Notes: generated from the sequence alone by a model not told the origin. DNA of 64,000 nucleotides from Nanobdellota archaeon (GCA_030647965.1 JAUSIT010000016.1:8429-72428), one strand, 5' to 3'. Counted from the first letter of the stretch, positions 7,361-50,742 are shown. Program-made: numbers and translations.

Positions 7361-7415
7361 ATGTTTAAATAGTGTAATAAATACACTAAGTATGTGTATA
7401 ACACACACTAAGTAA
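7361..7415 (+). promoter_or_regulatory. conserved TATA + palindromic block shared with 12470..12535 and (related) 18121..18154; candidate NAD-regulon operator
   Basis: aatgtttaaatagtgtaataaatacactaagtatgtgtataacacacactaagtaa; palindromes agtgta-N5-tacact. Confidence 0.45.
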
Positions 7416-7618: not shown

Positions 7619-8758
7619 ATGACACAAAGAAAAAATATAAACATTGCAAGAGATTACCTTGATTTTACTGATAAATATTTTCAGAGAACAAGACAAATAC
7701 TTGAAGAAGAAGGAATAAACCCTATTGTTAGATATCAATTATTTGTAAGAAAGCCGGGAATTGTAAAAGGGGTTGATGAAGCTGTTGATTTTATTAAAAG
7801 TGTTGCTGGAAACAAGGGAAAAATTTATGCTTTAAGGGATGGAAATTCTTATGATTCATGTGAACCTTTGATAAAACTAGAGGGAAGGGTACAGGATTTT
7901 GTTAATCCTGAAACAGCATATCTTGGAATTATATCAGGAGCTTTAACAGAAAACATAAATATGGTTGATGTAAGAGAAAAAGCAAGAGATATTTTCAATG
8001 CTGCACAAGGCAAACCAGTTCTTTATATGGGCGCAAGGCATTTTGATTATTCATTAGATGAAGAAATAGCAAAAATCTGTCAAGAAGAAGGATTTATTGG
8101 ATGTTCAACAGATATTGGAGCAAAAGCCTGGAATGCAAAAGGTCTAGGAACAACTCCTCATGCTTTGATTGTAAGTTATGCTGCATATATGGATGAAAAT
8201 GGAATAAAAGGAAATGCAACTGTTGAAGCAGCAAAAGGATTTGACAAATATATTGAAAAAGATGTTGCAAGAATAATGTTAATTGATACATTTAATAGAG
8301 AAATTACAGATTCAATTGAAACAGCAAAAGCAGTTCCAAGTTTAAAAGGAGTTAGAATAGATACTTGTGGAGAAAATTATACACAAGGTTCTGTTGGTTT
8401 AAAACTTCCAGAATTAGATGTTCCTGAAAAATATCTAAGAGGAAAAGGAGTTACAATTGCAGGAGTTTGGGGCTTAAGAAAAGCATTAGTTGAAAATGGT
8501 TTTGGAAATTTAGGGCAAGTAGTTTCTTCTGGATTTAATGCAGAAAAAACAAAAGCATTTTTAAAAGCAGACAAAGCATTTCAAGATATGTATGGATTTC
8601 CTTTATTTACATTATTTGGAACAGGAAGCATTGCAAATCCAACAATGGCAACCGCAGATATTGTTGCATATTTTAATGAAAAACAAGGAAAATGGAAAGA
8701 AATGCACAAAGTTGGAAGACCTGAAATTCAAACAAGCAGATTGGAGGAAATAAAATGA
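7619..8758 (+). CDS. pncB: nicotinate (or nicotinamide) phosphoribosyltransferase
   Basis: 379 aa; similarity by eye to archaeal NAPRT; first gene of NAD salvage operon with overlapping start/stops. Confidence 0.55.
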   Translation: MTQRKNINIARDYLDFTDKYFQRTRQILEEEGINPIVRYQLFVRKPGIVKGVDEAVDFIKSVAGNKGKIYALRDGNSYDSCEPLIKLEGRVQDFVNPETAYLGIISGALTENINMVDVREKARDIFNAAQGKPVLYMGARHFDYSLDEEIAKICQEEGFIGCSTDIGAKAWNAKGLGTTPHALIVSYAAYMDENGIKGNATVEAAKGFDKYIEKDVARIMLIDTFNREITDSIETAKAVPSLKGVRIDTCGENYTQGSVGLKLPELDVPEKYLRGKGVTIAGVWGLRKALVENGFGNLGQVVSSGFNAEKTKAFLKADKAFQDMYGFPLFTLFGTGSIANPTMATADIVAYFNEKQGKWKEMHKVGRPEIQTSRLEEIK

Positions 8759-9471
8759 AAGTATTTTATGATGTAGACACACAAAATGATTTTATGAATT
8801 CAAATGGAGCATTATATGTTCCTGATGCAGAGCTAATAAAACCAAATTTGATATTATTGACTGATTATGCAGAAGGCGAAAAATATAATGAAAAAAGATT
8901 TCCAATAATTGGCTCTGTTGACAGGCATTTTGGTAGTGAAGAATATAAAGAAAGAGAAGGAGAACTTGCTAAATGGGGAGGGCCTTTTCCAGACCATTGC
9001 ATGGATAAGAGTGAAGGATATAGAAAAATAGCTGAGACATTTTTATGGACAGATAATTTTAGGGGAGATGGTTGTAGTCATACTTCTCTTTATATGGAAA
9101 ATAGATTAGATTCTTTGATAGATTATAAATTAATGCAGAAAGCTCTTGAAACAATACGTTTTAAATATCAAAATTGGGGGCCATCTGCAGTTTATTTTGA
9201 AAAACAAAGTTATGATGTTTTTACAAATCCTGCAATTGATTGTTTTTTGAGATTAGCAAAAATAGATGAAGCAGTAGTTTATGGAGTTGCAACTGATTAT
9301 TGTGTTAAAGCAGCTGTTCTTGGAATGCAAGAAAGAGGAATTAAATGTTATGTTGTAGAAGATGCAATAAAAGGAGTTTTTCCAGAATCTACACAAAAAG
9401 CTCTCGAAGAAATGACTAATGCTGGAGCAGAGCTTGTAACAACACAGGATGTTTTGGAGGGAAGAATATGA
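8755..9471 (+). CDS. pncA: nicotinamidase / isochorismatase-family hydrolase
   Basis: Isochorismatase fold motif 'VYGVATDYCVKAAVLGMQERGIKCYVVEDA' with catalytic Cys. Confidence 0.65.
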   Translation: MKVFYDVDTQNDFMNSNGALYVPDAELIKPNLILLTDYAEGEKYNEKRFPIIGSVDRHFGSEEYKEREGELAKWGGPFPDHCMDKSEGYRKIAETFLWTDNFRGDGCSHTSLYMENRLDSLIDYKLMQKALETIRFKYQNWGPSAVYFEKQSYDVFTNPAIDCFLRLAKIDEAVVYGVATDYCVKAAVLGMQERGIKCYVVEDAIKGVFPESTQKALEEMTNAGAELVTTQDVLEGRI

Positions 9472-10364
9472 CTGGAATAAAACTAGCAAGAATGAATTCT
9501 GAACTTGTTGCAGATGAGATTGGGGATTTTATTATTAATGAAATAGTGCCAATTGGATATACTGGCGGGGTGATTGGTTTATCTGGTGGAGTTGATTCTA
9601 CTACTTCTGCAGCACTTGCAAAAAGAGCATTTGATAAATATAATTTAAATTCAAATAAAAAATTAGAATTAGTTGGATGCATAATGCCTTCTAATACAAA
9701 TTCAAGTGATGATGAAAGAGATGCAAGAAAAGTTGCAGATAGATTAGGAATTAGATATGAAATTATTCCTATTGAACCTGTTATTGAAGGTTTTAGAAAA
9801 GTTATTCCAAAAATAATTGAAAGTTCTTATATAAAAGGAAATTTAAAAGCAGAAATTCGTGCTACTTTACTTCATCAATTAGCAGGTTATGAAAAAAAGC
9901 TTGTTATTGGAACAGGAAATAGAGACGAAGATTTTGGAGTTGGTTATTATACTTTATTTGGAGATGGTGCTGTTCATATGAGCCCACTTGGAGGACTACC
10001 AAAAAGACTTGTTAGGCAAATGGCATGTTATTTAGGATTTTCTGATTTAGCAAATAGAATTCCAACAGCAGGACTTGAAGCAGGACAGACTGATTTTAAA
10101 GATTTAGGATATTATTATGAAACCGTTGAAGGAATTTCAGAAGGAAAATTGCAAGGATTTTCTAGATTAGAAATAATCAATGATGATTTAATTAAAGAGC
10201 TTGCAAGAAAAGATATTTCAGATTATACACAAATTTATGGAAAGAGCAAATTTTCTTCAGCAAAAGAAATAGTAAATAATGTTTTTATGAGAATGGAAAT
10301 TGCAAAAGCAAAAGGAAAAATTGTTTCACCGCCTCAACCTAAAATAAGTTTGGGGTATTTGTAA
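9468..10364 (+). CDS. nadE: NH3-dependent NAD+ synthetase
   Basis: PP-loop 'GLSGGVDSTTSAAL'. Confidence 0.75.
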   Translation: MTGIKLARMNSELVADEIGDFIINEIVPIGYTGGVIGLSGGVDSTTSAALAKRAFDKYNLNSNKKLELVGCIMPSNTNSSDDERDARKVADRLGIRYEIIPIEPVIEGFRKVIPKIIESSYIKGNLKAEIRATLLHQLAGYEKKLVIGTGNRDEDFGVGYYTLFGDGAVHMSPLGGLPKRLVRQMACYLGFSDLANRIPTAGLEAGQTDFKDLGYYYETVEGISEGKLQGFSRLEIINDDLIKELARKDISDYTQIYGKSKFSSAKEIVNNVFMRMEIAKAKGKIVSPPQPKISLGYL

Positions 10365-10365
10365 A

Positions 10366-10779
10366 ATGGAATATAAAAATCCCGGAGCAACTGTGGATTT
10401 GATTGTTGAAAAAGAAGGCAAAATACTTTTGATTAAAAGAAAAGATGAGCCATTTAAAGAAATGTATGCTCTTCCTGGCGGTTATTTAGAATGTGGAAAA
10501 GAAAATTTAAAACAAGCAGGGGCAAGAGAGTTATATGAAGAAACTAATTTAAGGACTAATTTAGAAAATTTATTTCTTGTAGGAGTTTATTCTGAACCAA
10601 ATAGAGATCCAAGAGGGCACGTAATATCTCATGCTTATTTTGTCAGAGATTACACTGGAGATGCTAAAGCAGGAGATGATGCAAAAGAGCTTGCATGGTT
10701 TGAATTAGATAAACTTCCAAAACTTGCATTTGACCATGATAAAATAATAAATGATTTTTTGAGGTTAAATGGGAGATAA
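10366..10779 (+). CDS. Nudix hydrolase (ADP-ribose pyrophosphatase-like)
   Basis: Nudix box 'GGYLECGKENLKQAGARELYEETNL'; paralogous to N-domain of 18155..18817. Confidence 0.7.
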   Translation: MEYKNPGATVDLIVEKEGKILLIKRKDEPFKEMYALPGGYLECGKENLKQAGARELYEETNLRTNLENLFLVGVYSEPNRDPRGHVISHAYFVRDYTGDAKAGDDAKELAWFELDKLPKLAFDHDKIINDFLRLNGR

Positions 10780-11221
10780 AATGAAATATATAGAATGCCC
10801 TGAAGTTTATAATAAAAAAGGAAATGAAAAATCTTTATTTATTGCTGGGGGCATAACTGAATGTGGAAACTGGCAGAATGATTTTATTGATTCACTAAAA
10901 AATGAAAATCTTATTGTATTAAATCCTAGAAGAAAAAATTTTGATATAAATGATGAAGAAATTTCTATTGCTCAAATAAAATGGGAATATGAACATTTGA
11001 AAAAAGCATCTGCAATTTCTTTTTGGTTTACATCTGAAACTCTTTGCCCAATAACATTATATGAATTAGGAAAAGTACAAGCTAGTAGAAAGCCTGTTTT
11101 TTTAGGAGTTCATCCAGCTTACAAAAGAAAATTTGATTTAGAAGTTCAGACAGGATTGATAAGACCTGAAACTAAAATTGTTTATTCACTAAATGATTTA
11201 TCTAAGCAGGTGATTGAATGA
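10769..11221 (+). CDS. nucleoside 2-deoxyribosyltransferase-like protein
   Basis: Weak resemblance ('YELGKVQASRKPVF'); placed in NAD/nucleotide cluster. Confidence 0.3.
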   Translation: MGDKMKYIECPEVYNKKGNEKSLFIAGGITECGNWQNDFIDSLKNENLIVLNPRRKNFDINDEEISIAQIKWEYEHLKKASAISFWFTSETLCPITLYELGKVQASRKPVFLGVHPAYKRKFDLEVQTGLIRPETKIVYSLNDLSKQVIE

Positions 11222-11771
11222 AGTGAAAATGACAAATAAAGAAAAATATGAAGCAACTTTGATTGGATGTGCAATTGGAGATGTTTTGGGAATGCCTATT
11301 GAAGGTTGGAAAAGAGAACAGATTAAAAAATATGTTGGAAAAGTTAGAGAGTTTATTGACCCTGTTCTTTTATATGATGAAAAAGGAGAATTGTTAAGAG
11401 AAGATGAATTTGGAAGATTAAAATATTACACAAAAAATCTTAAAAAAGGAGAGTATACTGACGATACAATTTTAACAATTGCAATTGCAGAATCAATTGC
11501 AGAAAAAAAATATCTTGATTTGGATGATAATGCAAAAAAGCAATTAGATGCATTTTTATCTGATAAGTCTCCTGATGGAAAATTCAAGAGCGGATTTGGA
11601 AAAACAACAAAAGATGGATTTTACAATTTATCAAAAGGAATTTCTCCTTTAGAATCAGGAGTTATTGGAGGACCTGGTGCTGCCCCTTCAATGAAAATTT
11701 CTCCTGTTGGATTATATATGAATGCTGTTAAAGATTATGAAAATGGATTGTTATGTCAGAAATGTGGTTAA
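11214..11771 (+). CDS. ADP-ribosylglycohydrolase family protein, N-terminal fragment (gene interrupted)
   Basis: 'LIGCAIGDVLGMPIEGW', 'YTDDTILTIAIAESI', 'GPGAAPSMKISPVGL' typical of the ARH/DraG family; ends at TAA 11769. Confidence 0.7.
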   Translation: MNEVKMTNKEKYEATLIGCAIGDVLGMPIEGWKREQIKKYVGKVREFIDPVLLYDEKGELLREDEFGRLKYYTKNLKKGEYTDDTILTIAIAESIAEKKYLDLDDNAKKQLDAFLSDKSPDGKFKSGFGKTTKDGFYNLSKGISPLESGVIGGPGAAPSMKISPVGLYMNAVKDYENGLLCQKCG

Positions 11772-11870
11772 AACCGCACCCTTTAGGGTGCTCATTTCTG
11801 AGCATCCTAAAAACAAGTGCCAATCAAACCCACACTTTTAAGTGTGGGTGGCACATTGTTTTTTTGATTT
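11762..11870 (+). other. in-frame, stop-rich, highly structured insert inside ADP-ribosylglycohydrolase gene (candidate intron / bypass element / small insertion)
   Basis: Two nested hairpin modules, each with TTTA loop: 11756-11801 (tcagaaatg...catttctga enclosing gcaccc-ttta-gggtgc) and 11814-11858 (gtgcc...ggcac enclosing acccacact-ttta-agtgtgggt); 5 in-frame stops. Confidence 0.6.
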
Positions 11871-12380
11871 TCAGAATTAATTGGAAAAATAACTCATTTA
11901 GATTCTCGTTCAATTGCAGGAGGAGTTGTTCAGGCACATTGCATTTATAGTCTGCTTCAAAATGTTTCTAAAGATGAATTTTTAGATTCTGCATCGTTTA
12001 TATGCGAGAGATTTGAAAAACCAATTTTAAAAGAATATACTCTTTCTGAAAAAGGAAATTTATTAAGCGGAATTGATTGGGTAAAAAATAATTCAGAAGT
12101 TAGTGATGAGGAAGCTTTTAAAGTTTTAAGGAATTCAAGCAATGTTTTTGAATGTCATCCATTTGCATTATTTATGTTTCAGAAATACTGGAATAATCCT
12201 ATTGAAGGCCTTATTGAAACAGTAAATTTCGGTGGGGATTGTGATACTACTGGTGCAATTTATGGTTCTCTTTGTGGTGCTAAAAATGGAATGATTTTTC
12301 CTGCTAAATGGATAGAACCTCTAAAAGACTTTGAAAAAATCAAAAAAATTGCTGATAGAATATTTGAACTTAAAGTTTAA
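11868..12380 (+). CDS. ADP-ribosylglycohydrolase family protein, C-terminal fragment (same frame as N-fragment)
   Basis: Translation from 11868: FSELIGKITHLDSRSIAGGVVQAHCIYSL...NFGGDCDTTGAIYGSLCGAKNG (conserved ARH C-terminal metal-site motif). Confidence 0.7.
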   Translation, partial: FSELIGKITHLDSRSIAGGVVQAHCIYSLLQNVSKDEFLDSASFICERFEKPILKEYTLSEKGNLLSGIDWVKNNSEVSDEEAFKVLRNSSNVFECHPFALFMFQKYWNNPIEGLIETVNFGGDCDTTGAIYGSLCGAKNGMIFPAKWIEPLKDFEKIKKIADRIFELKV

Positions 12381-12469: not shown

Positions 12470-12535
12470 ATGTTTAAATAGTGTATAACATACAATAACT
12501 ATGTGTATAAGTTACACTAAGGTAAGGTAATTTCT
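12470..12535 (+). promoter_or_regulatory. conserved TATA + palindromic block (second copy), upstream of NMNAT-like gene
   Basis: taatgtttaaatagtgtataacatacaataactatgtgtataagttacactaaggtaagg; outer palindrome tagtgtaac...gttacacta. Confidence 0.45.
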
Positions 12536-12570
12536 ACACAAATCAGATAAATTAGACAGAAAACAAAAAA

Positions 12571-13341
12571 ATGAAGCTTGGAAAAGTCGGATTAATAGGA
12601 AGGTTTAAGCCAGTACATAATGGAGCTGCACTTATGCTTGAAACAGTATGTGAAAAAGCAGAAAGTGTGATAATTGGAATAGGCAGCTCAAATAAGTACA
12701 ATGCACGAAATCCTTTTCTGCCTGAAGAATCAGAAGAAATGGTAAGATTAGTTCTTGAAAAATTTTCAAATCAAAAAAATCCTTTAGTTTATTCTGGGAA
12801 TTTTTTGGATGAAGGAAATTCGAGTGAATTTCCTGCCCTGAAAATTAAACAAATTTTCAGTGATCTGAAATTAAAACCAGTAAGCCTACAACCAAATTAT
12901 AAAGAATTGAATTTTAATTTCAGACATTATGAAATCTTGCATGTGCCTGATTTTTCACACATACTCCAATATAGCAACGGAGAAAAATGGAAGGAATATG
13001 TCTGTGGGCAATTTGGAGAGCTGGATAATTTTGTAACTTCAAATGATTTTGTAAAAGAATTACTAAAAGACAGATATAATATAATTCATCCTTCTGAATT
13101 AATTCCAAAAGAAAAGCAAATTTTACTGAAAGCAACAGAGGTAAGGCTTGAAATGGCCAGATTTGGAAATTGGAAAAAATTAGTTCCTGAAAAAATTTCT
13201 GAATATCTTGAAAAAAATAATCTTGTATCAAGATTTCAAAATGAATTTGGATTGCAAACTCTAGCTTTGCTGTCTGAAAATCTTAATTTAAATGAAACAG
13301 AAGATGCTGCAGAAGAAAAATTGCATGCACAGGAGTTATAA
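12571..13341 (+). CDS. nicotinamide-nucleotide adenylyltransferase-like protein (archaeal NadM family) with divergent HxGH motif and C-terminal extension
   Basis: 'LIGRFKPVHNGAAL' (HKGH->HNGA), 'IIGIGSSNKY..RNPF', 'VYSGNFL', 'YSNGEKWKEYV' match archaeal NMNAT. Confidence 0.55.
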   Translation: MKLGKVGLIGRFKPVHNGAALMLETVCEKAESVIIGIGSSNKYNARNPFLPEESEEMVRLVLEKFSNQKNPLVYSGNFLDEGNSSEFPALKIKQIFSDLKLKPVSLQPNYKELNFNFRHYEILHVPDFSHILQYSNGEKWKEYVCGQFGELDNFVTSNDFVKELLKDRYNIIHPSELIPKEKQILLKATEVRLEMARFGNWKKLVPEKISEYLEKNNLVSRFQNEFGLQTLALLSENLNLNETEDAAEEKLHAQEL

Positions 13342-14135
13342 TGGCAACAATAGGAAATTATAGAGTTTTAACTCAAATTGGAGAGGGCGGATTTGGAAGA
13401 GTTTTTCAGGCAGAACATTTAGTTCTTGGAGAAAAAGCATGTTTAAAACAAAATATAAACAGTTCTGTAGAAGATGTTGAATTATTAAAGCACGAAGTAA
13501 AACTACTTTGGAATTTAGATGAATATCATTCTATTCCTTCTGTAAAAGATTTTATCCAATTAGACAGGACAAATGCAGTGCTTGTTATGAAATATATAGA
13601 CGGAAAAACTTTGGAAGATATTGTTGAAAAAAAAGGTCCTCTATATCCTGAAGATGCATGTTGGATAACAGAAAGATTGCTTGGAGCATTATTTTATGCT
13701 CATTGTTATGGGACTATTCATTCTGATGTTAAACCTCAAAATGTATTTGTTGAACCAAGAAAACATGATATTAAATTAATTGATTTTGGATTGGCAAGTT
13801 ACAAGCCAGGCAGCCATACTAAACCTGCAGGTTATACCCCAAAATATGCTGCACCAGAACTAGTTAATGGAAATCCTCCAATTCCTCAAACAGATCTTTA
13901 TGGAGTTGGAATGGTAATGTTAAGAGCTTTAGGAGGGGATATTGCAAAAAAAAGTTTTAGAAGCGATACTCCTGAAGAAATCACTGAATTTTGCAATGAA
14001 TTATTGAGATATAATCCTCTTGAAAGGCCATCGTGGGAAAAAAATAATCCTTTAGAGAGATTAGCTAATGTTCGTGAGAAAGTTTTCGGAAGAAGACATT
14101 CCAGCGATGATAAACTGAAAGGAGGTGGAATGTAA
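13341..14135 (+). CDS. Hanks-type serine/threonine protein kinase
   Basis: Gly loop 'IGEGGFGRVF', catalytic loop 'HSDVKPQNVFV', 'DFGLA', 'APE'. Confidence 0.7.
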   Translation: MATIGNYRVLTQIGEGGFGRVFQAEHLVLGEKACLKQNINSSVEDVELLKHEVKLLWNLDEYHSIPSVKDFIQLDRTNAVLVMKYIDGKTLEDIVEKKGPLYPEDACWITERLLGALFYAHCYGTIHSDVKPQNVFVEPRKHDIKLIDFGLASYKPGSHTKPAGYTPKYAAPELVNGNPPIPQTDLYGVGMVMLRALGGDIAKKSFRSDTPEEITEFCNELLRYNPLERPSWEKNNPLERLANVREKVFGRRHSSDDKLKGGGM

Positions 14136-15099
14136 AATGTATGCATGGGGCGGCTCAACAGCAGATTGGGCAGGAAAAAGTAAATATGACTTTGGCTCTG
14201 CAAGAGCAAGATATGACAAAATTGCAGCAACTGCAGCATCAAGAACTTATACAAGAAGAAACGAGCCAGATATGGCTCTTGTTGATGCAAGAGGAAAAAC
14301 ACTTACAAGTGAAAGTGAAAATCCTTTAATAATTGCAGTAGATGTTACTGGTTCAATGGCAGAATGGCCTGCTGAAATTTTTGACAGGTTGCCTTTGTTA
14401 TATCAAACTCTTGGCAAATATAGGCCAGATTTAGATATAGTATTTGCAGCAATTGGGGATGCAACATGTGATTCATATCCTTTGCAAGTAAATGATTTTG
14501 CAAAAGACACAGGTGAGTTAGAAAAAAAACTAAAAGCACTTGGATGTGAGGGCGGCGGAGGCGGCCATATCACAGAGAGTTATGAATTATTTGGCTATTT
14601 TATGCAAGAGCATTGTAATACTCCAAAAGCAAAATCTCCATTTTTATTAATATATGGAGATGAAGCTTTTTATGACAAAGTAGACCCAAGGCAAGTTAAG
14701 CATTATATCGGAGATGATTTGCAGTCTCCATTAGATACCAAAGAAGTATGGCAAAATTTAATGCAGAAATACAATGTGTATTATATGCAAAAACCATATG
14801 GTGGTGGATATGATTCCAGCACTACTCAAAAAGTTAAAGAGCTTTGGGGAGATGCTTTGGGAAAAGAGAGAATTATACAGTTGCCAAGCATGGAGAGAGC
14901 AGTAGATGTTGCAATAGGATTAATTGCAAAGCAATGGGGGGAATTTAGCGATTTTAAGCTAAGCATGGACGCAAGACATGATGACCCTAGCCTTAAAGAT
15001 TCTGTATATAAATCTCTAAGACATATTGACGCAGATCCTGCACCAACTTCAGTAATGGCTAAAACAGGTTCAGTAAAAACCAAGTCATTATTGAGTTAA
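14125..15099 (+). CDS. von Willebrand factor type A (vWA) domain protein
   Basis: MIDAS-like 'IIAVDVTGSM'; start overlaps kinase stop. Confidence 0.6.
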   Translation: MECKMYAWGGSTADWAGKSKYDFGSARARYDKIAATAASRTYTRRNEPDMALVDARGKTLTSESENPLIIAVDVTGSMAEWPAEIFDRLPLLYQTLGKYRPDLDIVFAAIGDATCDSYPLQVNDFAKDTGELEKKLKALGCEGGGGGHITESYELFGYFMQEHCNTPKAKSPFLLIYGDEAFYDKVDPRQVKHYIGDDLQSPLDTKEVWQNLMQKYNVYYMQKPYGGGYDSSTTQKVKELWGDALGKERIIQLPSMERAVDVAIGLIAKQWGEFSDFKLSMDARHDDPSLKDSVYKSLRHIDADPAPTSVMAKTGSVKTKSLLS

Positions 15100-15203
15100 A
15101 TTTAAAGAAAAAATTTATTTTTTTATTTTTTTATTTTAATTAAGCAAGAAGAAATTAAACAAGACAGAGATATCAAAAAAATGAAACAAACAAAACAAGC
15201 AAA

Positions 15204-16112
15204 ATGAAGAAAACAATAAATGCAATTGTGACAATGCCACCATATGCACCATTTATAGACGAGGTTATAGAACATCCTCTTGTAAAAGGAATAAGGCTCA
15301 ATATAGTTATGCCTATAAAAAAAGATAAAAGAGAAGAATTATTGAAAGGCCTTTATGAAAAAACAAAAAACAAAAATAAGGAATTGTGGCTTGATTTAAA
15401 ATGCAGGCAGTTAAGAACTGAAAATTATGGAGTTCCTCCATTTACAGAAATTGAATTGAGCCATAAAATACAGGTTTATACTCCATGCAAAGCATATTTT
15501 TCAGATAGAAGCATAAGTGCAACTATTTTAGAAGTTGATGGAAATAAATTAATAATGCAAGAAGGTCCAAAAAGAGTTATTGGGCCAGGGGAGTCTGTAA
15601 CAATTCCTCATCCGACACTTCAGATTGAAGGCTATTTAACAGACAAAGATAAAGAGTATATTGAAACCGGAAATAAAATTGGGCTTAAGAATTATATGCT
15701 CTCTTTTGTTGAAAAAAAAGAAGATATCGAAGAATTAAAAAAATACTGCAAAGATGCAACTATAATTTCTAAGATAGAATCTCAAAAAGGTATTGATAAT
15801 CTCAAGGAAATTAATACTAGATTAATGGCTGCACGGGGAGATTTGTATATGGAGCTTAATTGGCCTCATGAAATAATTTTTGCAGTTGAAAAAATTCTTG
15901 CAAAAGATGAAAATGCAATGGTCGCTTCAAGAATTTTTTCCTCCCTAGAAGAAAGGCTAGAGCCATCATGTGAAGATTTAGGGGATGTAGATAATCTTTT
16001 GAGAATGGGATATAAAACTTTTATGTTCGGAGATGACATTTGCTTTAAAAAAGATTCTATAATTGGTGCATTGAATTTGCTTTCAATAATGGCAAGGAGG
16101 TATGTGGGATAA
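15204..16112 (+). CDS. pyruvate kinase-like TIM-barrel domain protein (truncated relative to PK)
   Basis: 'LWLDLKCRQLRT' (cf. LDTKGPEIR), 'ISKIESQKGIDNLKEI', 'LMAARGDLYMEL' (cf. MVARGDLG). Confidence 0.4.
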   Translation: MKKTINAIVTMPPYAPFIDEVIEHPLVKGIRLNIVMPIKKDKREELLKGLYEKTKNKNKELWLDLKCRQLRTENYGVPPFTEIELSHKIQVYTPCKAYFSDRSISATILEVDGNKLIMQEGPKRVIGPGESVTIPHPTLQIEGYLTDKDKEYIETGNKIGLKNYMLSFVEKKEDIEELKKYCKDATIISKIESQKGIDNLKEINTRLMAARGDLYMELNWPHEIIFAVEKILAKDENAMVASRIFSSLEERLEPSCEDLGDVDNLLRMGYKTFMFGDDICFKKDSIIGALNLLSIMARRYVG

Positions 16113-16184
16113 ATATTGCACTATGAAAAGTAATATTGCTACATAAAAATATTATCATTAAACTCTTTAAGTAATGCTACCAGT

Positions 16185-16375
16185 ACGGGAAAAAATTTTG
16201 CTCTTGTATCTTTATGTTATATATTATAAGAGCAAAATTTTTTGTTAGACAAGAAACAGGGTTAAGGCTTGTTCAACATTATTATCTCATCAGGTATTAA
16301 TTAATGGTGATTGTCGCTAGACAATCTTAGTATAATTGCTTGTTAAAGCAAACTATCTCAACGTAGTTGCATATC
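16185..16375. repeat. structured intergenic repeat family, copy B (with partial internal duplication)
   Basis: hairpin aaaattttgctctt-N22-aagagcaaaatttt; shared 3' block ttgtcgctagacaatcttagtataattgcttgttaaagcaaactatctcaacgtagttgcatat. Confidence 0.6.
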
Positions 16376-16437
16376 AAGTTTAGTAATTTACCTAACTCTC
16401 GCATAAAATTCATAAACACAAAAAACATTAGTATAAC

Positions 16438-17010
16438 ATGAAAAAAATAGCAATTTTTGGAGGAAGTTTTAATCCAATACATAACAGTCATGTAAATATA
16501 GTAAAAAATTTAATTGATTCTAAAATAGTTGATGAAGTCTGGATTTTACCATGCAGAAAACATGTTTTTAATAAAACTCTTGCAAAAGAAAAAGATAGAG
16601 TTAAAATGATTAAATTAGCCTTAGAAAATATAAAAAATGTTAAAATTTGCAATATTGAATTAAAATCAAAAGAAAAAAGTTATACTATAAAAACTCTTAG
16701 AAGAATAAAAAGGAAATTTGGGAAAAAATATAAATTTTTTATTATAATTGGTTCTGATATTATTTATGAAGTAAAAAAATGGTATAAATATCAAGAACTG
16801 TTTAATGAGGTTGAATTTATTGTATTTAAAAGAAAGGGATATTTAATTAAAAAAGTGAACGGCATGAAGATTTACCATATTATTAATAAAAAAGAAAGTG
16901 GGCTTTCTTCAACAGAAATTAGGAAAAGAGCAATGCAGGGCAAATCTTTTAAAGCGCTTGTTCCAGTAAAAGTTAGTAAATATATACTCGAGAAGAAGTT
17001 ATACCTATGA
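16438..17010 (+). CDS. nadD: nicotinate-nucleotide adenylyltransferase (bacterial NadD-type)
   Basis: 'IAIFGGSFNPIHNSHV' nucleotidyltransferase motif, about 190 aa. Confidence 0.65.
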   Translation: MKKIAIFGGSFNPIHNSHVNIVKNLIDSKIVDEVWILPCRKHVFNKTLAKEKDRVKMIKLALENIKNVKICNIELKSKEKSYTIKTLRRIKRKFGKKYKFFIIIGSDIIYEVKKWYKYQELFNEVEFIVFKRKGYLIKKVNGMKIYHIINKKESGLSSTEIRKRAMQGKSFKALVPVKVSKYILEKKLYL

Positions 17011-17879
17011 AAATACAAACATTTACAATTGTTGCAGGAACTGCAGCATGCAATGCAAAATGCCCATATTGTGTTTCAAAAATGACTCCTCATCAAGGAG
17101 TTGGATTTGAAAAGCCTGTTGTAAACTGGCTTAATTTTGACAAAGCATGCAGGCTTGCACAAATCAGCAATGTCAGCACTGTTTTAATTACTGGAAAGGG
17201 TGAGCCAACATTATACCCTGAACAAATTACAGAATTTCTTAAAAGATTAAAAAAATTTGATTTTCCTTTAATTGAAATTCAGACAAATGCTCTTTCTTTT
17301 GGCAAAGATTTCAAAAAATATGAAAAACATCTTAAACAATGGAGAGAATTGGGATTAAACACAATTGCAATTTCTTTTGTTAGTGATAAAAAAGAAGAAA
17401 ATAAAAAAATTTATACTCCTGATTCAGATTATATTGATTTAGAAGATACTATAAAAAAATTACATAATCTTGGATTTTCTATCAGATTAAGCTGCATCAT
17501 GCTAAAGGGAGTTATGGATAGTGTTGAAAAAGTAAAAAAATTAGCTGAAAATGCAAAAAAATGGAATGTTGAACAACTAACTGTTCGTTCTGTAAAAGCA
17601 TCTGATTATTCTGAAGATAGTGATGTTTACAAATATGCAAAAGAACACGAACTTAGTGATGGACAAATTTTAGATATAGGAAAATTTCTTGAGAAAAATG
17701 CAAAAAAATTAATGACACTAGACCACGGAGCAGTTGTATATGATTTAGACGGACAAAATATATGCATAACAGATTGTTTAACTATAAAATCAAATACAGA
17801 AGAATTAAGACAGTTAATATTTTTCCCAGATGGACATTTAAGATATGATTGGAGATATGCTGGCGCAGTGATTATATAA
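17007..17879 (+). CDS. radical SAM domain protein
   Basis: 'CNAKCPYC' CxxxCxxC near N-terminus, 'TGKGEPTL'; start overlaps nadD stop. Confidence 0.55.
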   Translation: MKIQTFTIVAGTAACNAKCPYCVSKMTPHQGVGFEKPVVNWLNFDKACRLAQISNVSTVLITGKGEPTLYPEQITEFLKRLKKFDFPLIEIQTNALSFGKDFKKYEKHLKQWRELGLNTIAISFVSDKKEENKKIYTPDSDYIDLEDTIKKLHNLGFSIRLSCIMLKGVMDSVEKVKKLAENAKKWNVEQLTVRSVKASDYSEDSDVYKYAKEHELSDGQILDIGKFLEKNAKKLMTLDHGAVVYDLDGQNICITDCLTIKSNTEELRQLIFFPDGHLRYDWRYAGAVII

Positions 17880-17934
17880 TACAAAACTATAAAATTTACA
17901 CTTGCAAATTATTGCACTTCGTTAAAATACTAGG

Positions 17935-18090
17935 TCGCTTAGTGGCTCCTATCTATTAATTAATAAATCGTGATTGAAAAAGTTTCGCCCTTATATTCTT
18001 AGGTTATTTATTGTAAGAGTAAAACTTTTTTGTTAGACAATTATATTATCCTTGTTCAGTGAACAAACTATTTCAACGCAGTTGCATATG
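17935..18090. repeat. structured intergenic repeat family, copy C
   Basis: taattaataaatcgtgattgaaaaag + hairpin + ttgttagacaattatattatccttgttcagtgaacaaactatttcaacgcagttgcatat. Confidence 0.6.
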
Positions 18091-18120
18091 AGGTCTTTAA
18101 ATTTATATCATAGATAGAAT

Positions 18121-18154
18121 AAATTTAAATAGCTTATTGTAATAATAACACTAT
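18121..18154 (+). promoter_or_regulatory. TATA (aaatttaaatag) plus element related to the 7361/12470 motif directly upstream of the NrtR-like gene
   Basis: cttattgtaataataacactat; reverse complement atagtgttattattacaataag resembles atagtgtaataaatacactaag at 7368. Confidence 0.35.
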
Positions 18155-18817
18155 ATGGAAAAAGAGTTTGAAAAGCCTTCTGTAACTGTTGACATAGTTA
18201 TTTTTACTGTATTTGAAAAAGAGTTAAAAGTTCTTCTTGTAAAAAGAAATATTGAGCCATTTAAGGGCATGTGGGCGATTCCTGGGGGGTTTGTAAGAAT
18301 GAATGAATCTTTGGAAGATGCTGCAAAAAGAGAGCTATCTGAAGAAACTGGTGTAAAAGATGTTTATCTTGAACAACTTTATACATTTGGAGATATAAAA
18401 AGAGATCCTCGAGGGAGAGTTATTACTGTTTCTTATTATGCTTTAGTAAAGCCAGAAGGAATAAAATTAAGTGCTTCAACAGATGTATCAGAAGCAAAAT
18501 GGTTTTCTATTTCTAAAATACCTAAACTTGCATTTGACCATAAAAAAATATTGGAATATGCTTTAAAGAGATTAAAATGGAAATTTGAATATAGTTTGAC
18601 TGCTTTTTCACTTTTACCTGAAAAATTTACATTAGGTCAGATTCAAAATATATATGAAATTGTTTTTGAGAAAAAATTTGACAAAAGAAACTTTGCCAAG
18701 AAATTAAAGTCCCTTAATATTTTAAAAACAGAAACAATTGAAAAAAATGTTTCATTTAGGCCCCCTCAAACATATTCATTGAAAAAAGATATAAAAGAAG
18801 TTATTGAGATTTTGTAG
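18155..18817 (+). CDS. NrtR-like Nudix-related transcriptional regulator (Nudix N-domain + C-terminal winged-helix-like domain)
   Basis: Nudix box '[24 protein letters not shown]'; C-terminal '[32 protein letters not shown]' as in NrtR family. Confidence 0.5.
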
Positions 18818-21761: not shown

Positions 21762-21868
21762 GGGCTTATAGTTCAATGGATAGAATGCCAGGCTTCGGTG
21801 GGCTTACTTTATTTAGTTAAAGAAGATGGAGAAACCTGTTGATCGAGGTTCGAATCCTCGTAGGCCCA
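21762..21868 (+). tRNA. intron-containing tRNA, anticodon read as TCG (Arg), about 36-nt intron 3' of position 37
   Basis: Acceptor GGGCTTA/TAGGCCC, D-arm GTTC..GAAT, anticodon stem CCAGG, loop CTTCGG, T-arm CGAGG-TTCGAAT-CCTCG; intron GAAG can pair with loop CTTC; no encoded CCA. Confidence 0.6.
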
Positions 21869-45836: not shown

Positions 45837-46020
45837 CTATTACAAATCATAATCAAACAAATATAAATTAATAACAACGCAGCATAAAGACAACTTTTAA
45901 CAACACAATATAGAAATAACACAGACGCACAAGAGACAAACAGACAATAAAAATCTGAAATACCCTGCGAAACAAGATAAAAACAAGAAAGAAAGGAGAA
46001 ATATCTCAAAAGAAGATTAG

Positions 46021-46148
46021 TTTTAACTAGATTTAACCTTAATATATTCCTGAAATACCTATTTAATAGACTTCTAAATAGATTTTGAAATTGAAATAGC
46101 TTAATTTAAAACAAAAAGAATTGAAATAGCTTTTAACTGGGTTTAACA
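46021..46148. repeat. paired direct repeats at the compositional boundary
   Basis: ttttaactagatttaacc (46021-46038) / ttttaactgggtttaac (46131-46147); ttgaaatagctt at 46091 and 46121; preceded by AC-rich T-poor stretch 45840-45990. Confidence 0.5.
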
Positions 46149-46177
46149 AACAGAAACATCTCTGAAAGGAGAGGAAT

Positions 46178-46435
46178 ATGTATTATATCGCTGGGATATT
46201 TGTTCTTTTCGCATCTATCTTTCTCGGAGGAGAAAAAGAGCTAAAGATGCAGGTATTAATTGGCTGGGGAATTGGGATTATTGGCATGGCAATATGGTTC
46301 ATCGTAGGGGGGATTGAAAAGTTGGTAAAAGAAATCTCTGAACTAAGAAAAGAAATCTCCAAACCGAAGAAGGAAGAAGCTCCCCCGGAAACTGCCAGAA
46401 CTGACGAAGGTTCCCAAGCCAGCATGGTAAGATAA
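46178..46435 (+). CDS. small membrane protein
   Basis: SD gaaaggagagg; two TM helices. Confidence 0.45.
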   Translation: MYYIAGIFVLFASIFLGGEKELKMQVLIGWGIGIIGMAIWFIVGGIEKLVKEISELRKEISKPKKEEAPPETARTDEGSQASMVR

Positions 46436-46455
46436 AATTCTCTACGAAGATGATT

Positions 46456-46494
46456 AAGGGCCTTATTGCATTCAAAAGGGTGAGGCCCTTTAAT
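46456..46494 (+). terminator. intrinsic terminator-like hairpin
   Basis: aagggcct...aggccctt stem followed by taattt. Confidence 0.45.
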
Positions 46495-46522
46495 TTGAAA
46501 ATAATTATTTACCCCATATAAA
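46495..46522 (+). promoter_or_regulatory. sigma70-like promoter (TTGAAA ... TATAAA)
   Basis: ttgaaaataattatttaccccatataaa. Confidence 0.4.
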
Positions 46523-46562
46523 TAGCAATTCATAAATTGAAATATCTCTGAAAGGGGGAATT

Positions 46563-46742
46563 ATGTTAACTATAATAGTGATTTTTTCAGCATTACTTTT
46601 GAATTCATTTAAAGTATGGGGGGGTTTATGGGTATTCTTTTGGTTTATTAGAAAAGAAGGGACAATAATTTTTCCAATTATTAATCTTTATATGTGGGTA
46701 TGTTGGTATATGATTATTTTTACTCTTTTTTCAATACATTAA
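46563..46742 (+). CDS. small membrane peptide (59 aa)
   Basis: SD gaaagggggaattatg; hydrophobic. Confidence 0.35.
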   Translation: MLTIIVIFSALLLNSFKVWGGLWVFFWFIRKEGTIIFPIINLYMWVCWYMIIFTLFSIH

Positions 46743-46761
46743 CTTTTTCAAAGGAGGGAAT

Positions 46762-46905
46762 ATGTTCTTCTCATTTGTAATTCTGCCTCCCCCTGAAGTT
46801 AGCGACCCTGGAGCATATTTGGGGTGGATGATAATAAACTTCTTTTTGTGGTATTATATTCTTAATGGGATTGTAAACTTTAGTACCATGAAAAGAAAAA
46901 AGTGA
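46762..46905 (+). CDS. small membrane peptide (47 aa)
   Basis: SD caaaggagggaatatg. Confidence 0.3.
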   Translation: MFFSFVILPPPEVSDPGAYLGWMIINFFLWYYILNGIVNFSTMKRKK

Positions 46906-46951
46906 TAAAAATTAGCAAATGAGTAATTAAATCACAATCAATCTTTTTCAC

Positions 46952-47197
46952 ATGGAGAGTGTCATGAACCGCATAATATTAATTATCTTAGGCATTTTTC
47001 TTTTATCTTTTGGAATTGCATTGCTCTGCGATGTTAGTTATAATAATGAAGTTGAATCCCTGGACTTCTATTTGCTATCTGGAATGGTGCATTTTCACAA
47101 CTTTAACATAGGAGTTATTTATATTATCTGCGGGCTCATCGCACTTGGAGGCCTTTTCACTATTCGCTTTTCGAAATGCATTGCATACTTAATGTAA
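46952..47197 (+). CDS. small membrane protein
   Basis: two TM helices. Confidence 0.4.
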   Translation: MESVMNRIILIILGIFLLSFGIALLCDVSYNNEVESLDFYLLSGMVHFHNFNIGVIYIICGLIALGGLFTIRFSKCIAYLM

Positions 47198-47249
47198 TTT
47201 TTTATAGCAAACAAACAAAACAAACAACAATCAAAAAACGAGGTTTGTC

Positions 47250-47636
47250 ATGAAAAATCGGAGAGATTATATCTTTGGAATTTGTTTTGCTTGGGTAGTC
47301 TTAATCATGGTAATCTTTAGTGCCACAGATAGTTCCAAGAATTTCATCGGCTCTAATTTATTGGGTTACAGCACTTGCCCAAACTGTGGGGATAGCTGGT
47401 GGTGGAAAGAATCTAAGAGCATAACCTTTGATTCAAATATTAATGCAATCATCTTTGAAGAAGGAGTGATGATTTGCAAAGAGTGTGTTTTAAATCCCAA
47501 AACCCTTGATGAAAACAGGATTTGCAAAAATCTTTTGAAATGGAGCTGGGATGAAGAAAAAGTTCAGAAAGTCAAAGAGGCAATAATTCAATACAAAGAT
47601 TCTTCATTACAAGAACAAAATAAAATGTTATTCTAA
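47250..47636 (+). CDS. membrane-anchored zinc-ribbon protein
   Basis: 'CPNCGDSWWW...CKECV'. Confidence 0.45.
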   Translation: MKNRRDYIFGICFAWVVLIMVIFSATDSSKNFIGSNLLGYSTCPNCGDSWWWKESKSITFDSNINAIIFEEGVMICKECVLNPKTLDENRICKNLLKWSWDEEKVQKVKEAIIQYKDSSLQEQNKMLF

Positions 47637-47706
47637 CTGGAAGAATAATTTAGCAGTGAGCAAAGAGCAAATAATCAAAAACAACTTTTTTCTCTGGAGG
47701 TATATC

Positions 47707-48192
47707 ATGAATGAATATGTAAACATCTTCATTCTCGCAACAATCTGCGGGTCAATTGCTTACACCATGACTGAATCAGGGATTTTCGAGCCGTACAGAA
47801 TTTTTTGTAAAAACGTCTGCAAAAAGCTCGGAGAACTTTCCAGTTGCGGATATTGCACTGGTCACTGGGTGGCTTTCTTTTTGGTTGCAGTTTACCAACC
47901 CAGAATTGTTCACAGCAGTTTCTGGCTTCTGGATTATTTCCTGACTGCGATTCTTATTGCATGGATTTCTGGATTGTGGTGGAGATTTCATGTATTTGTC
48001 GGCCAGGTGATTGTAGCCCTGAAAGAAAAAAACAGAGTCTCTAAGGAAGAAAGACTTGCAATGATGGCATTATTTGAAGAGGGTAAAAATACAATCCCTC
48101 AAAGTAATGAGATCCCCGCAATTAAAAAGCAAAGAGCAAATAATATTATACCTTTTGAAAGAACAAACATTATTCCATTTAGAAGGGGGTGA
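47707..48192 (+). CDS. membrane protein
   Basis: SD ctggaggtatatcatg; ORF-track start 47656 lies inside promoter-like motif. Confidence 0.45.
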   Translation: MNEYVNIFILATICGSIAYTMTESGIFEPYRIFCKNVCKKLGELSSCGYCTGHWVAFFLVAVYQPRIVHSSFWLLDYFLTAILIAWISGLWWRFHVFVGQVIVALKEKNRVSKEERLAMMALFEEGKNTIPQSNEIPAIKKQRANNIIPFERTNIIPFRRG

Positions 48193-48197
48193 AAATA

Positions 48198-48371
48198 ATG
48201 TGGAAAATTAGACTAATATCTTCCCAGGAAATATTTGAATCACTTTCAGATGAAGAACCTGTTCAAGACACAATGAGCGGGGTATTATGCATTTCTTGGA
48301 CAAGTATTCAGGGAAAACCCTACACCCTTTACCCCGGGGTCGTTGCCACAGTTATCATCAAGGGAGAATAA
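48198..48371 (+). CDS. small protein (57 aa)
   Basis: SD agaagggggtgaaaataatg. Confidence 0.3.
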   Translation: MWKIRLISSQEIFESLSDEEPVQDTMSGVLCISWTSIQGKPYTLYPGVVATVIIKGE

Positions 48372-48390
48372 CTATTCAACATCTTCGCCA

Positions 48391-48426
48391 AGAGAGGCAT
48401 TATATTTCTATTATATAGTGCCTCTT
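48391..48426. repeat. 37-nt palindromic hairpin repeat, copy 1
   Basis: agagaggcattatatttctattatatagtgcctctt. Confidence 0.7.
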
Positions 48427-48481
48427 AAATTAAAAAAGCATTGAGCAATTAAACAAACAACTTTTTTCCAGGAGGCATGTC

Positions 48482-48844
48482 ATGTTAATCTTTGGAATTC
48501 TTTTGGCACTCGTTATCCTCGGGGTAGTAGTGTATCGTTTTGCACCAAAGGATGTTGGGAGCACTATCATGGTCCTCTCTTTGGGCATGATTCTTGTAAC
48601 TATGTTAACTATCCCACTCGCCAGAAATCAGTATATCCAAGAAATTTATGGTTTCAGGGATTTTAGCGAATTCTGCAAAGAAACTGGGGCCATAGGGTTT
48701 AAGCAGTCAGAAAATTATGACGAGTTTATGCAACAAGTCAAAGAAAAAAATATCTGGCTTGTCAGAACCCAACATTTTAATTCTGGCATCTGGTTTGATC
48801 TCTGGATTCCGGATGAAGTTGATTTGCTTGAACAGATTAAGTAA
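48482..48844 (+). CDS. membrane protein
   Basis: SD ccaggaggcatgtcatg. Confidence 0.45.
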   Translation: MLIFGILLALVILGVVVYRFAPKDVGSTIMVLSLGMILVTMLTIPLARNQYIQEIYGFRDFSEFCKETGAIGFKQSENYDEFMQQVKEKNIWLVRTQHFNSGIWFDLWIPDEVDLLEQIK

Positions 48845-49131
48845 CTGAAAACAATTTCACAAACAAAAACTTTTCACAATCTAAAACAAAAAAAGGAGTA
48901 GGCCATGAAAGCAATGAAATATGTTTTTATTATGGCCAGCGTTATTATCATTATTGCCGGAGCAATAGTGATGGTTATTCATCATCTCAAAAGCATAGCA
49001 GACAATCTTAACTGGATGCTCTTTGGCGATGGTGCTGGCATGAATGTTGTTCGCAAATAAATCGTTTACAAAAAACAATAATATACTAAACAAAAAAAAC
49101 TTTTCACAAAAACAATTTTCGGAGGTGTGTC

Positions 49132-49566
49132 ATGTCAAGAATGTTGGTTCTTATTATGGTTGCGCTTTTTGCGACCTGTGTTTTTAACGGCTGTGGAGAA
49201 TCTAAATATATTTACGGAGTTGTTTTAAATGAATATGGGACCATTGTCAAAAGGCAAAACTTTATTGAACGTTCTGAAGGAGCATTATTTGGAAACGATT
49301 CAATAAAGCTAAATGATCCTACCTATGTAATTCAATTTCAGGTGGTTTCTGTAAGAAGTTCTAAAAAAATATATGATTCCGGCCCTTACCTTGGAAAAAT
49401 TTATACTTTTCAAATTATGGGAGGGAGATATAATAATTTAGAAGCATTAAATATTGCAATACACAAAGGAACAAAAATCAGAATTCCCCAGAGCGAATTT
49501 AATTTTTATTTAAATGGTAATGTAGGCAAAATATTTGATTCAAATGTTAGTGTATTAGATGAATAA
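49132..49566 (+). CDS. lipoprotein
   Basis: 'LFATCVFNGCGES' lipobox-like; SD ggaggtg. Confidence 0.5.
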   Translation: MSRMLVLIMVALFATCVFNGCGESKYIYGVVLNEYGTIVKRQNFIERSEGALFGNDSIKLNDPTYVIQFQVVSVRSSKKIYDSGPYLGKIYTFQIMGGRYNNLEALNIAIHKGTKIRIPQSEFNFYLNGNVGKIFDSNVSVLDE

Positions 49567-49835
49567 TCCAATCTGAAAAAGAAAGGAGGTGAGAATAATG
49601 TTGCTAGGAACAATACTACAAATCGGAGGAGCAATAATTATGATTGTTAGTGTAATTGGTTTGAGCATTACACTATACAATAACCATAAATCAAACAAGC
49701 ATCCTGAAAGGAGGTGATCTAATCTATCTGTTTTTATTTTACAAATCTTAAAACGAAAGGAGATAAACAACAAACAAATGATTTACCTGATTCATCACTA
49801 TTTTCAAACTTCAATCATCAACAAGGAGAAATTCT

Positions 49836-50731: not shown

Positions 50732-50742
50732 CATCTTCGTCA

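Follow-up and report, generated by a model that had tools for sequence, protein, structure and literature searches.

Archaeal nicotinamide mononucleotide (NMN) adenylyltransferases (NMNATs) of the NadM type, such as MJ0541 and MTH150 (PDB 1F9A, 1EJ2), and pyruvate kinases (PK), such as E. coli PykF (PDB 1PKY/4YNG), are described enzymes of nucleotide and central metabolism. In CbbO, NorD, CoxE, ViaA and the plant ligase RGLG, in which it is combined with a RING, a von Willebrand factor A (vWA) domain with its MIDAS metal site docks onto a target enzyme. The TerY-P triad, as summarised in PMC11090510 after Anantharaman et al. 2012, consists of a TerY vWA protein, a PP2C phosphatase and a Ser/Thr kinase with a Zn ribbon, and the phage sets for the reconstitution of nicotinamide adenine dinucleotide (NAD+) consist of Adps and Namat (NARP1), Nampt and Nmnat (NARP2), or PnuC and a NadR-like protein (NARP3). 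Here, we describe a four-gene operon, g1 to g4, which shares some features with each of these systems and differs from each of them. It lies in a 64,000-nucleotide stretch of DNA from a Nanobdellota archaeon (GCA_030647965.1, JAUSIT010000016.1:8429-72428; hereafter the window), in the low-GC part (about 0.27-0.34) of a contig of a Nanoarchaeota (DPANN) metagenome-assembled genome. Its core, the triad of g1, g3 and g4, recurs in the same order in archaea and bacteria, and the whole is best read as a module of NAD and adenylate metabolism.

The four open reading frames (ORFs), all on the same strand (Table 1), encode a NadM-type NMNAT homolog (g1), a Hanks-type Ser/Thr kinase (g2), a vWA/MIDAS-fold protein (g3) and a PK-like protein (g4). 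All of them are real, and the families to which they had been assigned in a previous reading of the window, made from the sequence only, were upheld. The same sequence-only reading had described the stops and starts in the operon as overlapping. This is true of g1 and g2, which overlap by 1 nt (TAATG), and nearly true of g2 and g3: the ATG of the MYxWG start of g3, which is kept in all homologs and has GGAGGTG ahead of it, is 1 nt past the g2 stop, while the mechanical ORF call of g3 begins at GTG 14125. Between g3 and g4, however, there is an A/T-rich spacer of 104 nt.

One genome per GTDB species was scanned with an alignment of g3, and the best 80 of 305 relatives were analysed. These comprised 48 archaeal loci, mostly labelled Woese-, Nano- and Pacearchaeota, and 32 bacterial loci from Planctomycetota, Myxococcota (including the cultured Chondromyces apiculatus DSM 436), Chloroflexota, Acidobacteriota and one Clostridia. 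Each related genome was seen through a stretch of up to 21 kb, and all ORFs within 6 kb of g3 were clustered as neighbours without bias. In all 64 loci with enough flank, g1 preceded g3 on the same strand, and g4 was found downstream of g3 in 60 of 68 loci by a strict script criterion. Co-localisation elsewhere, the absence of which had been named beforehand as grounds for refuting the proposed system, was therefore observed. The eight loci without a g4 call included two artefacts of filter overlap (L025, L048), one truncated ORF (L074), and five loci of a Myxococcota sub-clade discussed below. In bacteria, the median gap was 18 nt from g1 to g3 and 2 nt from g3 to g4, with 15 of 23 g3-g4 junctions overlapping or at most 10 nt long, and such spacing indicates that the bacterial g1-g3-g4 genes are translationally coupled. 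A NadE gene followed g4 in 13 of the 32 bacterial loci; the products of the two that were checked by Pfam (L070 and L065) were glutamine-dependent, with CN_hydrolase and NAD_synthase domains. Clearly, the conserved unit is the g1-g3-g4 triad, near-invariant and in the same order in DPANN archaea and in bacteria of at least five phyla.

The kinase is not a part of this unit. The g2 protein is a complete Pkinase domain with a readable G-loop, HSDVKPQN, DFG and APE, confirming its description as a canonical Ser/Thr kinase, but it is a bare domain with no fused zinc ribbon or OB fold. A kinase gene was found between g1 and g3 in archaeal loci only; it was there in 0 of 32 bacterial loci and was missing from two archaeal ones (L022, L026), and g1-g3-g4 is retained without it. 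Thus, the kinase is a lineage-specific add-on of DPANN archaea and phages. The previous view of the kinase and vWA pair as a hallmark of signalling or conflict systems was not supported, as the kinase is dispensable and g1, g3 and g4 matched no defence model.

The g3 protein could be classified only by its predicted structure. None of 25 g3 members matched a Pfam or NCBIfam model, even at E = 5, and no sequence-profile match to the PDB was obtained. In contrast, when the AlphaFold2 model of g3 (pLDDT 85.7, pTM 0.86) was compared with the PDB by Foldseek, the top 50 matches were all vWA/MIDAS domains (E about 2e-6 to 5e-5), among them integrin beta-I, Rpn10, ANTXR2, RGLG and NorD, which bore out the vWA/MIDAS assignment. 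Of the MIDAS residues, those assigned in g3 are D73-V-T75-G-S77 and G178-D179, which are invariant across archaea, bacteria and phages. An exhaustive profile search showed that g3 represents a discrete family with 1,703 representatives at E<=1e-3 and 1,290 at <=1e-10; its identity across DPANN lineages is 50-73%. In having a vWA/MIDAS domain, g3 resembles the enzyme-docking proteins mentioned above, but no MoxR AAA+ partner was found in the g3 neighbourhoods, and the family is isolated in sequence, with no match at this level to any vWA family or to the Pfam vWA/TerY models. The C-terminus of g3 varies with lineage. In the window it is a disordered, S/T/K-rich tail that ends in KTKSLLS, and DPANN and viral copies with an adjacent kinase have a tail of this kind, ending in K(S/T)K(S/P)LL or xRL. 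Archaeal and bacterial copies without the kinase lack the tail, and g3 of Myxococcota, Chloroflexota and Acidobacteriota ends in a CxxC...CxxC zinc ribbon.

The g4 protein matched the PK barrel model PF00224 (2e-17, 63.8 bits against a cut-off of 30), and the top 50 Foldseek matches of its AlphaFold2 model (pLDDT 93.8) were all PK, with TM-scores of 0.76-0.82 over the whole query. It has the A-domain TIM barrel of PykF, with the catalytic positions, and a shortened B domain, and ends after the barrel, having about 300 residues as compared with about 470. No match to the PK_C domain, which serves in allostery and tetramerisation, was found in g4, and the TM-score normalised to the target was about 0.5. 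The g4 protein scored 76.9 bits against the PK equivalog cut-off of 306.4 (TIGR01064). Its conserved residues include R31, N33, D64, K66, R71, K190, E192, D213 and S242, and all five PK motifs that were tested (RxN, DxKxRQLR, K-I-E, ARGD and A-S-R) were present in 57 of 66 g4 orthologs. The barrel motifs pointed out previously, LDLKCRQLR and ARGDLYMEL, are present and conserved, and the C domain is indeed missing, although the small B domain is retained. Two further differences from PK are a degenerate K+-site Ser (RLNxVMP for RxNxSHG) and an invariant Arg in DxKCRQLR.

The g1 protein matched CTP_transf_like and archaeal NMNAT models weakly and mostly with its N-terminal part, and remained below the NMNAT equivalog cut-offs (57.2 vs 181.2 bits for TIGR01527, 75.7 vs 127 bits for PRK01153). 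However, a profile of 22 g1 family members aligned end to end with MJ0541 (1F9A; E=3.7e-28, profile positions 13-178), and also at full length with MTH150. As the profile spans the solved archaeal NMNATs end to end, g1 is a true NadM homolog. It shares with them the GRFxPxH start, the T-E-V-R motif and the overall 170-residue core, and differs in its obligatory linkage to vWA and PK-like genes. In the window, the start of g1 reads GRFKPVHNGA (R11...H16-N-G-A19), with Ala in place of the second His of HxGH, exactly as had been noticed, and the second signature (S/T-x-x-R) is retained, RATEVRLEM being aligned with SGTEIRRRM of MJ0541. The loss of this His is a property of the window copy and of one DPANN clade but not of the family, since among the 22 bacterial copies whose motif could be located, 20 retained HxGH or HxAH; the loss showed no correlation with the presence of the kinase. 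A C-terminal extension of about 100 residues, which had been ascribed to g1, was not confirmed. Instead, the window copy has an internal insertion of 52 residues (about aa 66-117; 12766-12921), seen in none of 21 aligned homologs, whose typical length is about 205 aa, and a conserved C-terminal tail that is roughly 13-25 residues longer than that of MJ0541 (168 aa). The g1 protein is predicted to act on NMN or nicotinic acid mononucleotide (NaMN), probably weakly in the clade with HxGA/G.

The surroundings of the module tie it to NAD. In the window, it is preceded by an NAD operon and followed by genes of a canonical NadD and of NrtR (Table 1), and in the 48 archaeal loci the recurrent neighbours were nicotinate phosphoribosyltransferase (PncB; 29 loci), isochorismatase (PncA; 27) and NAD kinase (26), followed by ADP-ribosylglycohydrolase (ARH; near the module in 14), NadA (6) and nucleoside hydrolase (6). 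The typical DPANN layout places the block between PncB-PncA-NadE-Nudix upstream and NAD kinase or ARH nearby. In six loci, clustering placed a NadA (quinolinate synthase) gene between g1 and the kinase gene, with a Pfam E of 1.8e-103 in L019, and this links the block with the de novo synthesis of NAD, too. NadD was found near the module in only 1 of the 80 related loci (L018), in addition to the window itself, and g1 was the sole adenylyltransferase detected in the flanks of 47 of the 48 archaeal loci. Thus, within the stretches inspected, g1 would usually be the only candidate for the adenylyltransferase step in these NAD super-operons. The link of the operon to NAD, as originally proposed, is strongly supported by NadE, PncA, PncB, Nudix, NadK and NrtR as neighbours.

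An NAD-regulon operator upstream of g1 had also been suggested, and the distribution of palindromes agreed with it. The pattern TAGTGTA-N5-TACACTA, with up to three mismatches, occurs in the window at 9 sites as compared with 1.9 expected, and 6 of the 9 are in three promoters: two in that of pncB, three in that of g1, and one directly before the start of nrtR. Over about 90 nt, the promoter of pncB shares 81% identity with that of g1, and both contain the TTTAAATA box. These data support the palindrome as a candidate NrtR-type operator common to the g1-g4 and pncB operons.

Relatives of g3 are also encoded by viruses. The protein matches phrog_2971, a family of unknown function. In Bixzunavirus mycobacteriophages, the gene order is Ser/Thr kinase, g3-like, small ORF and PurA-like adenylosuccinate synthetase; in Vibrio phages, a g3-like gene is followed by that of adenylosuccinate synthase, and a 485-kb uncultured phage encodes DnaJ-kinase, g3 and g4, with ARH downstream. 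Among 69 loci from IMG/VR, many of them from genomes of 100-485 kb, g3 was followed by a PurA-like gene in 56 (PF00709 at 5.6e-56 for the representative from L095) and by g4 in 14, two loci (L097, L103) having both. The sole other recurrent neighbour was a kinase gene upstream of g3, in about 40-46 of the 69 loci, and neither g1 nor NadE was found in any of them. The kinases of the viral cassettes carry an N-terminal DnaJ domain. In several large phages, a gene of the Thg1-like (tRNA-His guanylyltransferase) family is located about 2.4 kb downstream of kinase-g3-g4 (L083:15251-16144, L088:12372-13220).

Ten g3 members were unusually long, seven of them with a C-terminal U-box, one with a NUDIX domain and one with a zinc ribbon. 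The U-box members include P0355, P0408, P0447, P0430, P0370 and P0416 (L153-L157), and the NUDIX member (P0429) comes from an MMETSP marine-eukaryote transcriptome. On the contigs of two U-box members there are genes of Med21, eEFSec, a chromodomain protein and a split FAA hydrolase as well, which identifies these two as eukaryotic. The vWA and U-box architecture parallels the vWA and RING combination of RGLG, and the U-box and NUDIX fusions fit a binding module linked to nucleotide metabolism.

We propose that the locus is a module for the synthesis of NAD and adenylate nucleotides and not an immune system, with the triad as its core, g3 as an adaptor and the kinase as a switch, and we give this proposal a probability of about 45%. 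The three proteins g1, g3 and g4 would form an ancient core, made together and possibly assembled into a complex. In this core, g1 would act as a NadM-type (Na)MN adenylyltransferase, with NadE completing NAD synthesis, and g4 as a minimal, unregulated PK-type enzyme, which would transfer the phosphoryl group of phosphoenolpyruvate (PEP) to a nucleoside diphosphate and so regenerate the ATP (or GTP) spent in adenylylation and amidation. The g3 protein would be a non-catalytic vWA adaptor, whose MIDAS metal site would dock onto and control a partner enzyme (g4, or the PurA-like protein in phages), and which may stand in for the allosteric/tetramerisation domain missing from g4. The kinase, inserted beside g3 in DPANN archaea and large phages, would most likely phosphorylate the S/T-rich C-terminal tail of g3 as a switch. 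In the window, ADP-ribose-responsive NrtR would repress g1-g4 together with pncB-pncA-nadE. The reuse of g3 with PK-like, PurA-like and Nudix enzymes, and with Hanks kinase or U-box controllers, argues for a metabolic assembly in which g3 is the constant element.

Several observations weigh against this proposal. The second His of HxGH is replaced by A, G or S in 36 of 44 DPANN copies of g1, and in E. coli NadD the H19A substitution leaves 0.62% of the activity, which is still enough for slow growth (PMC1249556). A canonical NadD is also encoded in the window, so that g1 may not be the working adenylyltransferase there; the NadD next door and the 52-residue insertion suggest that the window g1 may be only weakly active or may serve as a ligand-binding subunit. 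As viruses carry g3-g4 without g1 and NadE, the link to NAD is not universal for g3. The five loci of the Myxococcota sub-clade (L061, L064, L067, L068, L069) lack g4, and in the two that were checked by Pfam, g3 is followed by a gene of a FAD_binding_3 aromatic-ring hydroxylase of about 545-614 residues (L061, 2006-3643; L064, 10875-12719). Moreover, it is not obvious why ATP regeneration would require a vWA partner of its own, and the bacteria that carry the triad very probably already have normal PK, NadD and NadE.

A serious alternative is that the triad makes or modifies a distinct nucleotide metabolite instead of NAD. In such a case g4 would perform PEP chemistry, by phosphoryl or enolpyruvyl transfer, g1 would nucleotidylate a phospho-intermediate other than NMN or NaMN, NadE would amidate it, and g3 would hold the enzymes together or bind the product. 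The scores of g1 far below the NMNAT cut-offs and its altered HxGH in most DPANN copies are consistent with that, as is the presence of a complete canonical Preiss-Handler set with NadD beside the triad in the window. It would also explain why large-genome bacteria have the triad as an accessory operon that includes a NadE, and why g4 can be exchanged for a FAD hydroxylase or a PurA-like ligase, as in biosynthetic cassettes. The CofC/FbiD step in the synthesis of F420 is a precedent for chemistry that combines PEP and a nucleoside triphosphate. However, the active site of g4 is that of a standard PK phosphotransferase, most DPANN NAD clusters show no other adenylyltransferase, so that g1 is needed for ordinary NAD synthesis, and no candidate product can be named. 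We consider a distinct metabolite less likely than the proposal above, though it is the strongest of the alternatives.

The arrangement of a kinase gene next to a vWA gene raises the possibility of a TerY-P-like signalling or anti-phage conflict system, which would sense or modify NAD-type nucleotides. Both systems have an adjacent Hanks kinase and vWA/MIDAS protein, plausibly with a phosphorylation switch, bacterial g3 has a zinc ribbon, and the TerY-P triad is active in defence contexts (PMC11090510). In addition, g2 matches the defence kinases PD-T4-6 and mad6, ARH and Nudix genes are nearby, and phages carry kinase-g3 cassettes. The g1-g4 module nevertheless misses two defining features of TerY-P, namely PP2C and the fusion of the kinase to a zinc ribbon or OB fold, and its vWA protein is associated with metabolic partners in NAD operons. 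PP2C was found neither among the neighbours in the window nor among the recurrent families of the 80 cellular and 69 viral loci, and the module contains no nuclease, TIR/SIR2, STAND or other effector component. Among the models of PADLOC 2.0, g2 alone had matches, which reflect generic Pkinase similarity, whereas g1, g3 and an accessory protein of about 290 residues (described below) had none, nor had g4. All bacterial versions and two archaeal ones do without the kinase, and the block resides in housekeeping NAD operons with high vertical conservation, not in variable islands. As the kinase is optional, as there is no PADLOC match to the core and no effector, and as the operons are housekeeping ones, the data speak against a system of defence or signalling, which we regard as unlikely. 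From the nucleotide signalling or defence module suggested by the sequence-only reading, the NAD link and the conserved synteny remain, while its core is a different one, the triad, and the defence role is probably wrong.

It is similarly improbable that g3 with g4 or the PurA-like protein, and with the kinase, is primarily a mobile viral or stress device for rebuilding ATP, AMP and NAD pools after their depletion, for instance through immunity that degrades NAD or ATP, and that cells have recruited it into their NAD operons. The cassette does occur in the 69 viral loci, many in large genomes and some with ARH as a neighbour, and NARP1-3, which are compact phage-borne NAD-related gene sets regulated or used around NAD depletion, show that such logic exists. 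Nonetheless, NARP1-3 are made of entirely other protein families, none of which is in the g1-g4 module, and the module is not NARP1, NARP2 or NARP3. The viruses, moreover, lack g1 and NadE and so encode no NAD-forming step. That g4 is simply the glycolytic PK of the organism, placed beside NAD genes by accident, is very improbable, for although g4-like proteins are named 'pyruvate kinase' in databases and their catalytic residues are intact, g4 is strictly linked to g3 and g1 across two domains of life and to g3 in phages, lacks the C domain, stays far below the equivalog cut-off, and occurs in large-genome bacteria in which a regular PK is expected as well.

In open-access texts, we found no earlier account of the association of g1, g3 and g4, be it in the NrtR regulon paper, the PurZ literature or the vWA conflict-system survey, in agreement with the initial impression that the system had not been described. 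The NrtR regulon table does list uncharacterised nrtX-nrtY operons as targets in Streptomyces, Frankia, Proteus and Hahella (PMC2330246). The triad is apparently an undescribed but widely distributed variant of NAD-operon organisation.

Table 1. Features of the window and positions of NadA genes in related loci.
Feature	Position	Strand	Remarks
Two operator-like palindromes	7370..7410	+	upstream of pncB-pncA-nadE
PncB-like type II phosphoribosyltransferase	7619-8758	+	upstream NAD operon (7619..11221)
PncA-like isochorismatase	8755-9471	+	upstream NAD operon
NadE	9468-10364	+	upstream NAD operon
Nudix	10366-10779	+	upstream NAD operon
Nucleoside deoxyribosyltransferase-like	10769-11221	+	upstream NAD operon
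ARH gene with in-frame insert	11214..12380	+	insert of 114 nt, 11760-11873
Three operator-like palindromes	12479, 12501, 12523 (12479..12541)	+	exact 22-nt phasing; downstream of TTTAAATA box; g1-g4 promoter
g1, NadM-type NMN-adenylyltransferase homolog, 256 aa	12571..13341	+	HNGA for HxGH; ATEVR kept; 52-aa insertion; C-terminal tail
g2, stand-alone Hanks-type Ser/Thr kinase domain, 264 aa	13341..14135	+	Pkinase 1.4e-37
g3, divergent vWA/MIDAS-fold protein, ~320 aa from MYxWG start	14137..15099	+	AlphaFold2 model and Foldseek; DVTGSM...EGGGGG...GDE
g4, PK-like A (TIM barrel) and small B domain, without C domain, 302 aa	15204..16112	+	PK barrel match; AlphaFold2 model
Canonical NadD	16438-17010	+	downstream of g4
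Radical-SAM gene	17007-17879	+	after NadD
NrtR (Nudix and NrtR winged helix, NrtR_WHD)	18155-18817	+	palindrome at 18135-18153
Beta-barrel protein ending in YKF	51351-52079		bacterial-looking ORF
OmpA-type C-terminal domain fused to substrate-binding protein	58229-59812		bacterial-looking ORF
ABC permease and ATPase	59904-61584		bacterial-looking ORFs
NadA insertions in related loci	L019:8095-9138; L025:4444-5469; L030:5386-6414		between g1 and kinase

A few other features of the loci were observed. The accessory family of about 290 residues, which has no Pfam match and contains the motifs GGRLVTTDWA, WWLEGSSD and GEVFHFxSH, is encoded in 12 archaeal loci between g3 and g4 (for instance, L037:11056-11946 and L056:6767-7669), and between the kinase and g3 in L005; it is absent from the window. 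In two of the Myxococcota loci (L064, L068), a kinase-like ORF of about 815 residues is located just upstream of g1. Similar blocks flank the nadD and radical-SAM genes of the window (16113-16437 and 17880-18154; for example, 16349-16390 and 18064-18105 are 81% identical), suggesting that the two genes may be a cassette inserted between g4 and nrtR.

The insert in the ARH gene is GC-richer, in frame, and contains five stop codons; excision of exactly these 114 nt gives back a protein colinear with the intact ortholog (L016:11185-12261). It is predicted to fold into a closing stem with three hairpins (minimum free energy -55.9 kcal/mol, z = -6.5), had no match in Rfam, and has no second copy in the window. 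It could be an endonuclease-spliced archaeal mRNA intron, or a small structured RNA or miniature inverted-repeat (MITE) insertion that inactivates ARH. A 107-nt tRNA at 21762-21868, matched by Rfam (54 bits) and missed by ARAGORN, is consistent with an intron-containing archaeal tRNA. At about 46000-64000, the GC content of the window climbs from about 0.27 to 0.35-0.45 and the ORFs look bacterial, not archaeal, which suggests that the assembly is chimeric or mis-binned, or that this part is an island gained by horizontal transfer; the finding on g1-g4 is untouched by this.

Taking the proposal one step further, we tentatively suggest that g3 represents an unrecognised adaptor family, spread over the three domains of life and viruses, that puts enzymes of purine and pyridine nucleotides (PK-like, NMNAT-like, PurA-like and Nudix) under post-translational control, by a Hanks kinase in DPANN archaea and phages and by a U-box ligase in eukaryotes. 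Joined by g1 and g4, it would form a new step, driven by PEP, or a metabolon in NAD(P) or adenylate synthesis, or else a route to a new NAD-related metabolite. With about 1,700 representative clusters and no Pfam model, the g3 family is a well-defined candidate for a new domain family. The cultured carrier Chondromyces apiculatus DSM 436 and the easily expressed bacterial operons make these hypotheses testable. The pathways of NAD biosynthesis and salvage are considered to be completely mapped, and the triad, which in large phages gives way to g3 with PurA-like genes, points towards an unexplored layer in nucleotide metabolism or in the way it is controlled. If the suggestion is true, a step is missing from the current pathway maps, and the 'pyruvate kinase' in metabolic reconstructions of DPANN archaea is mis-assigned. 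As these archaea are host-dependent and have minimal genomes, the triad affects how both their NAD supply and the 'pyruvate kinase' in such reconstructions are to be read.

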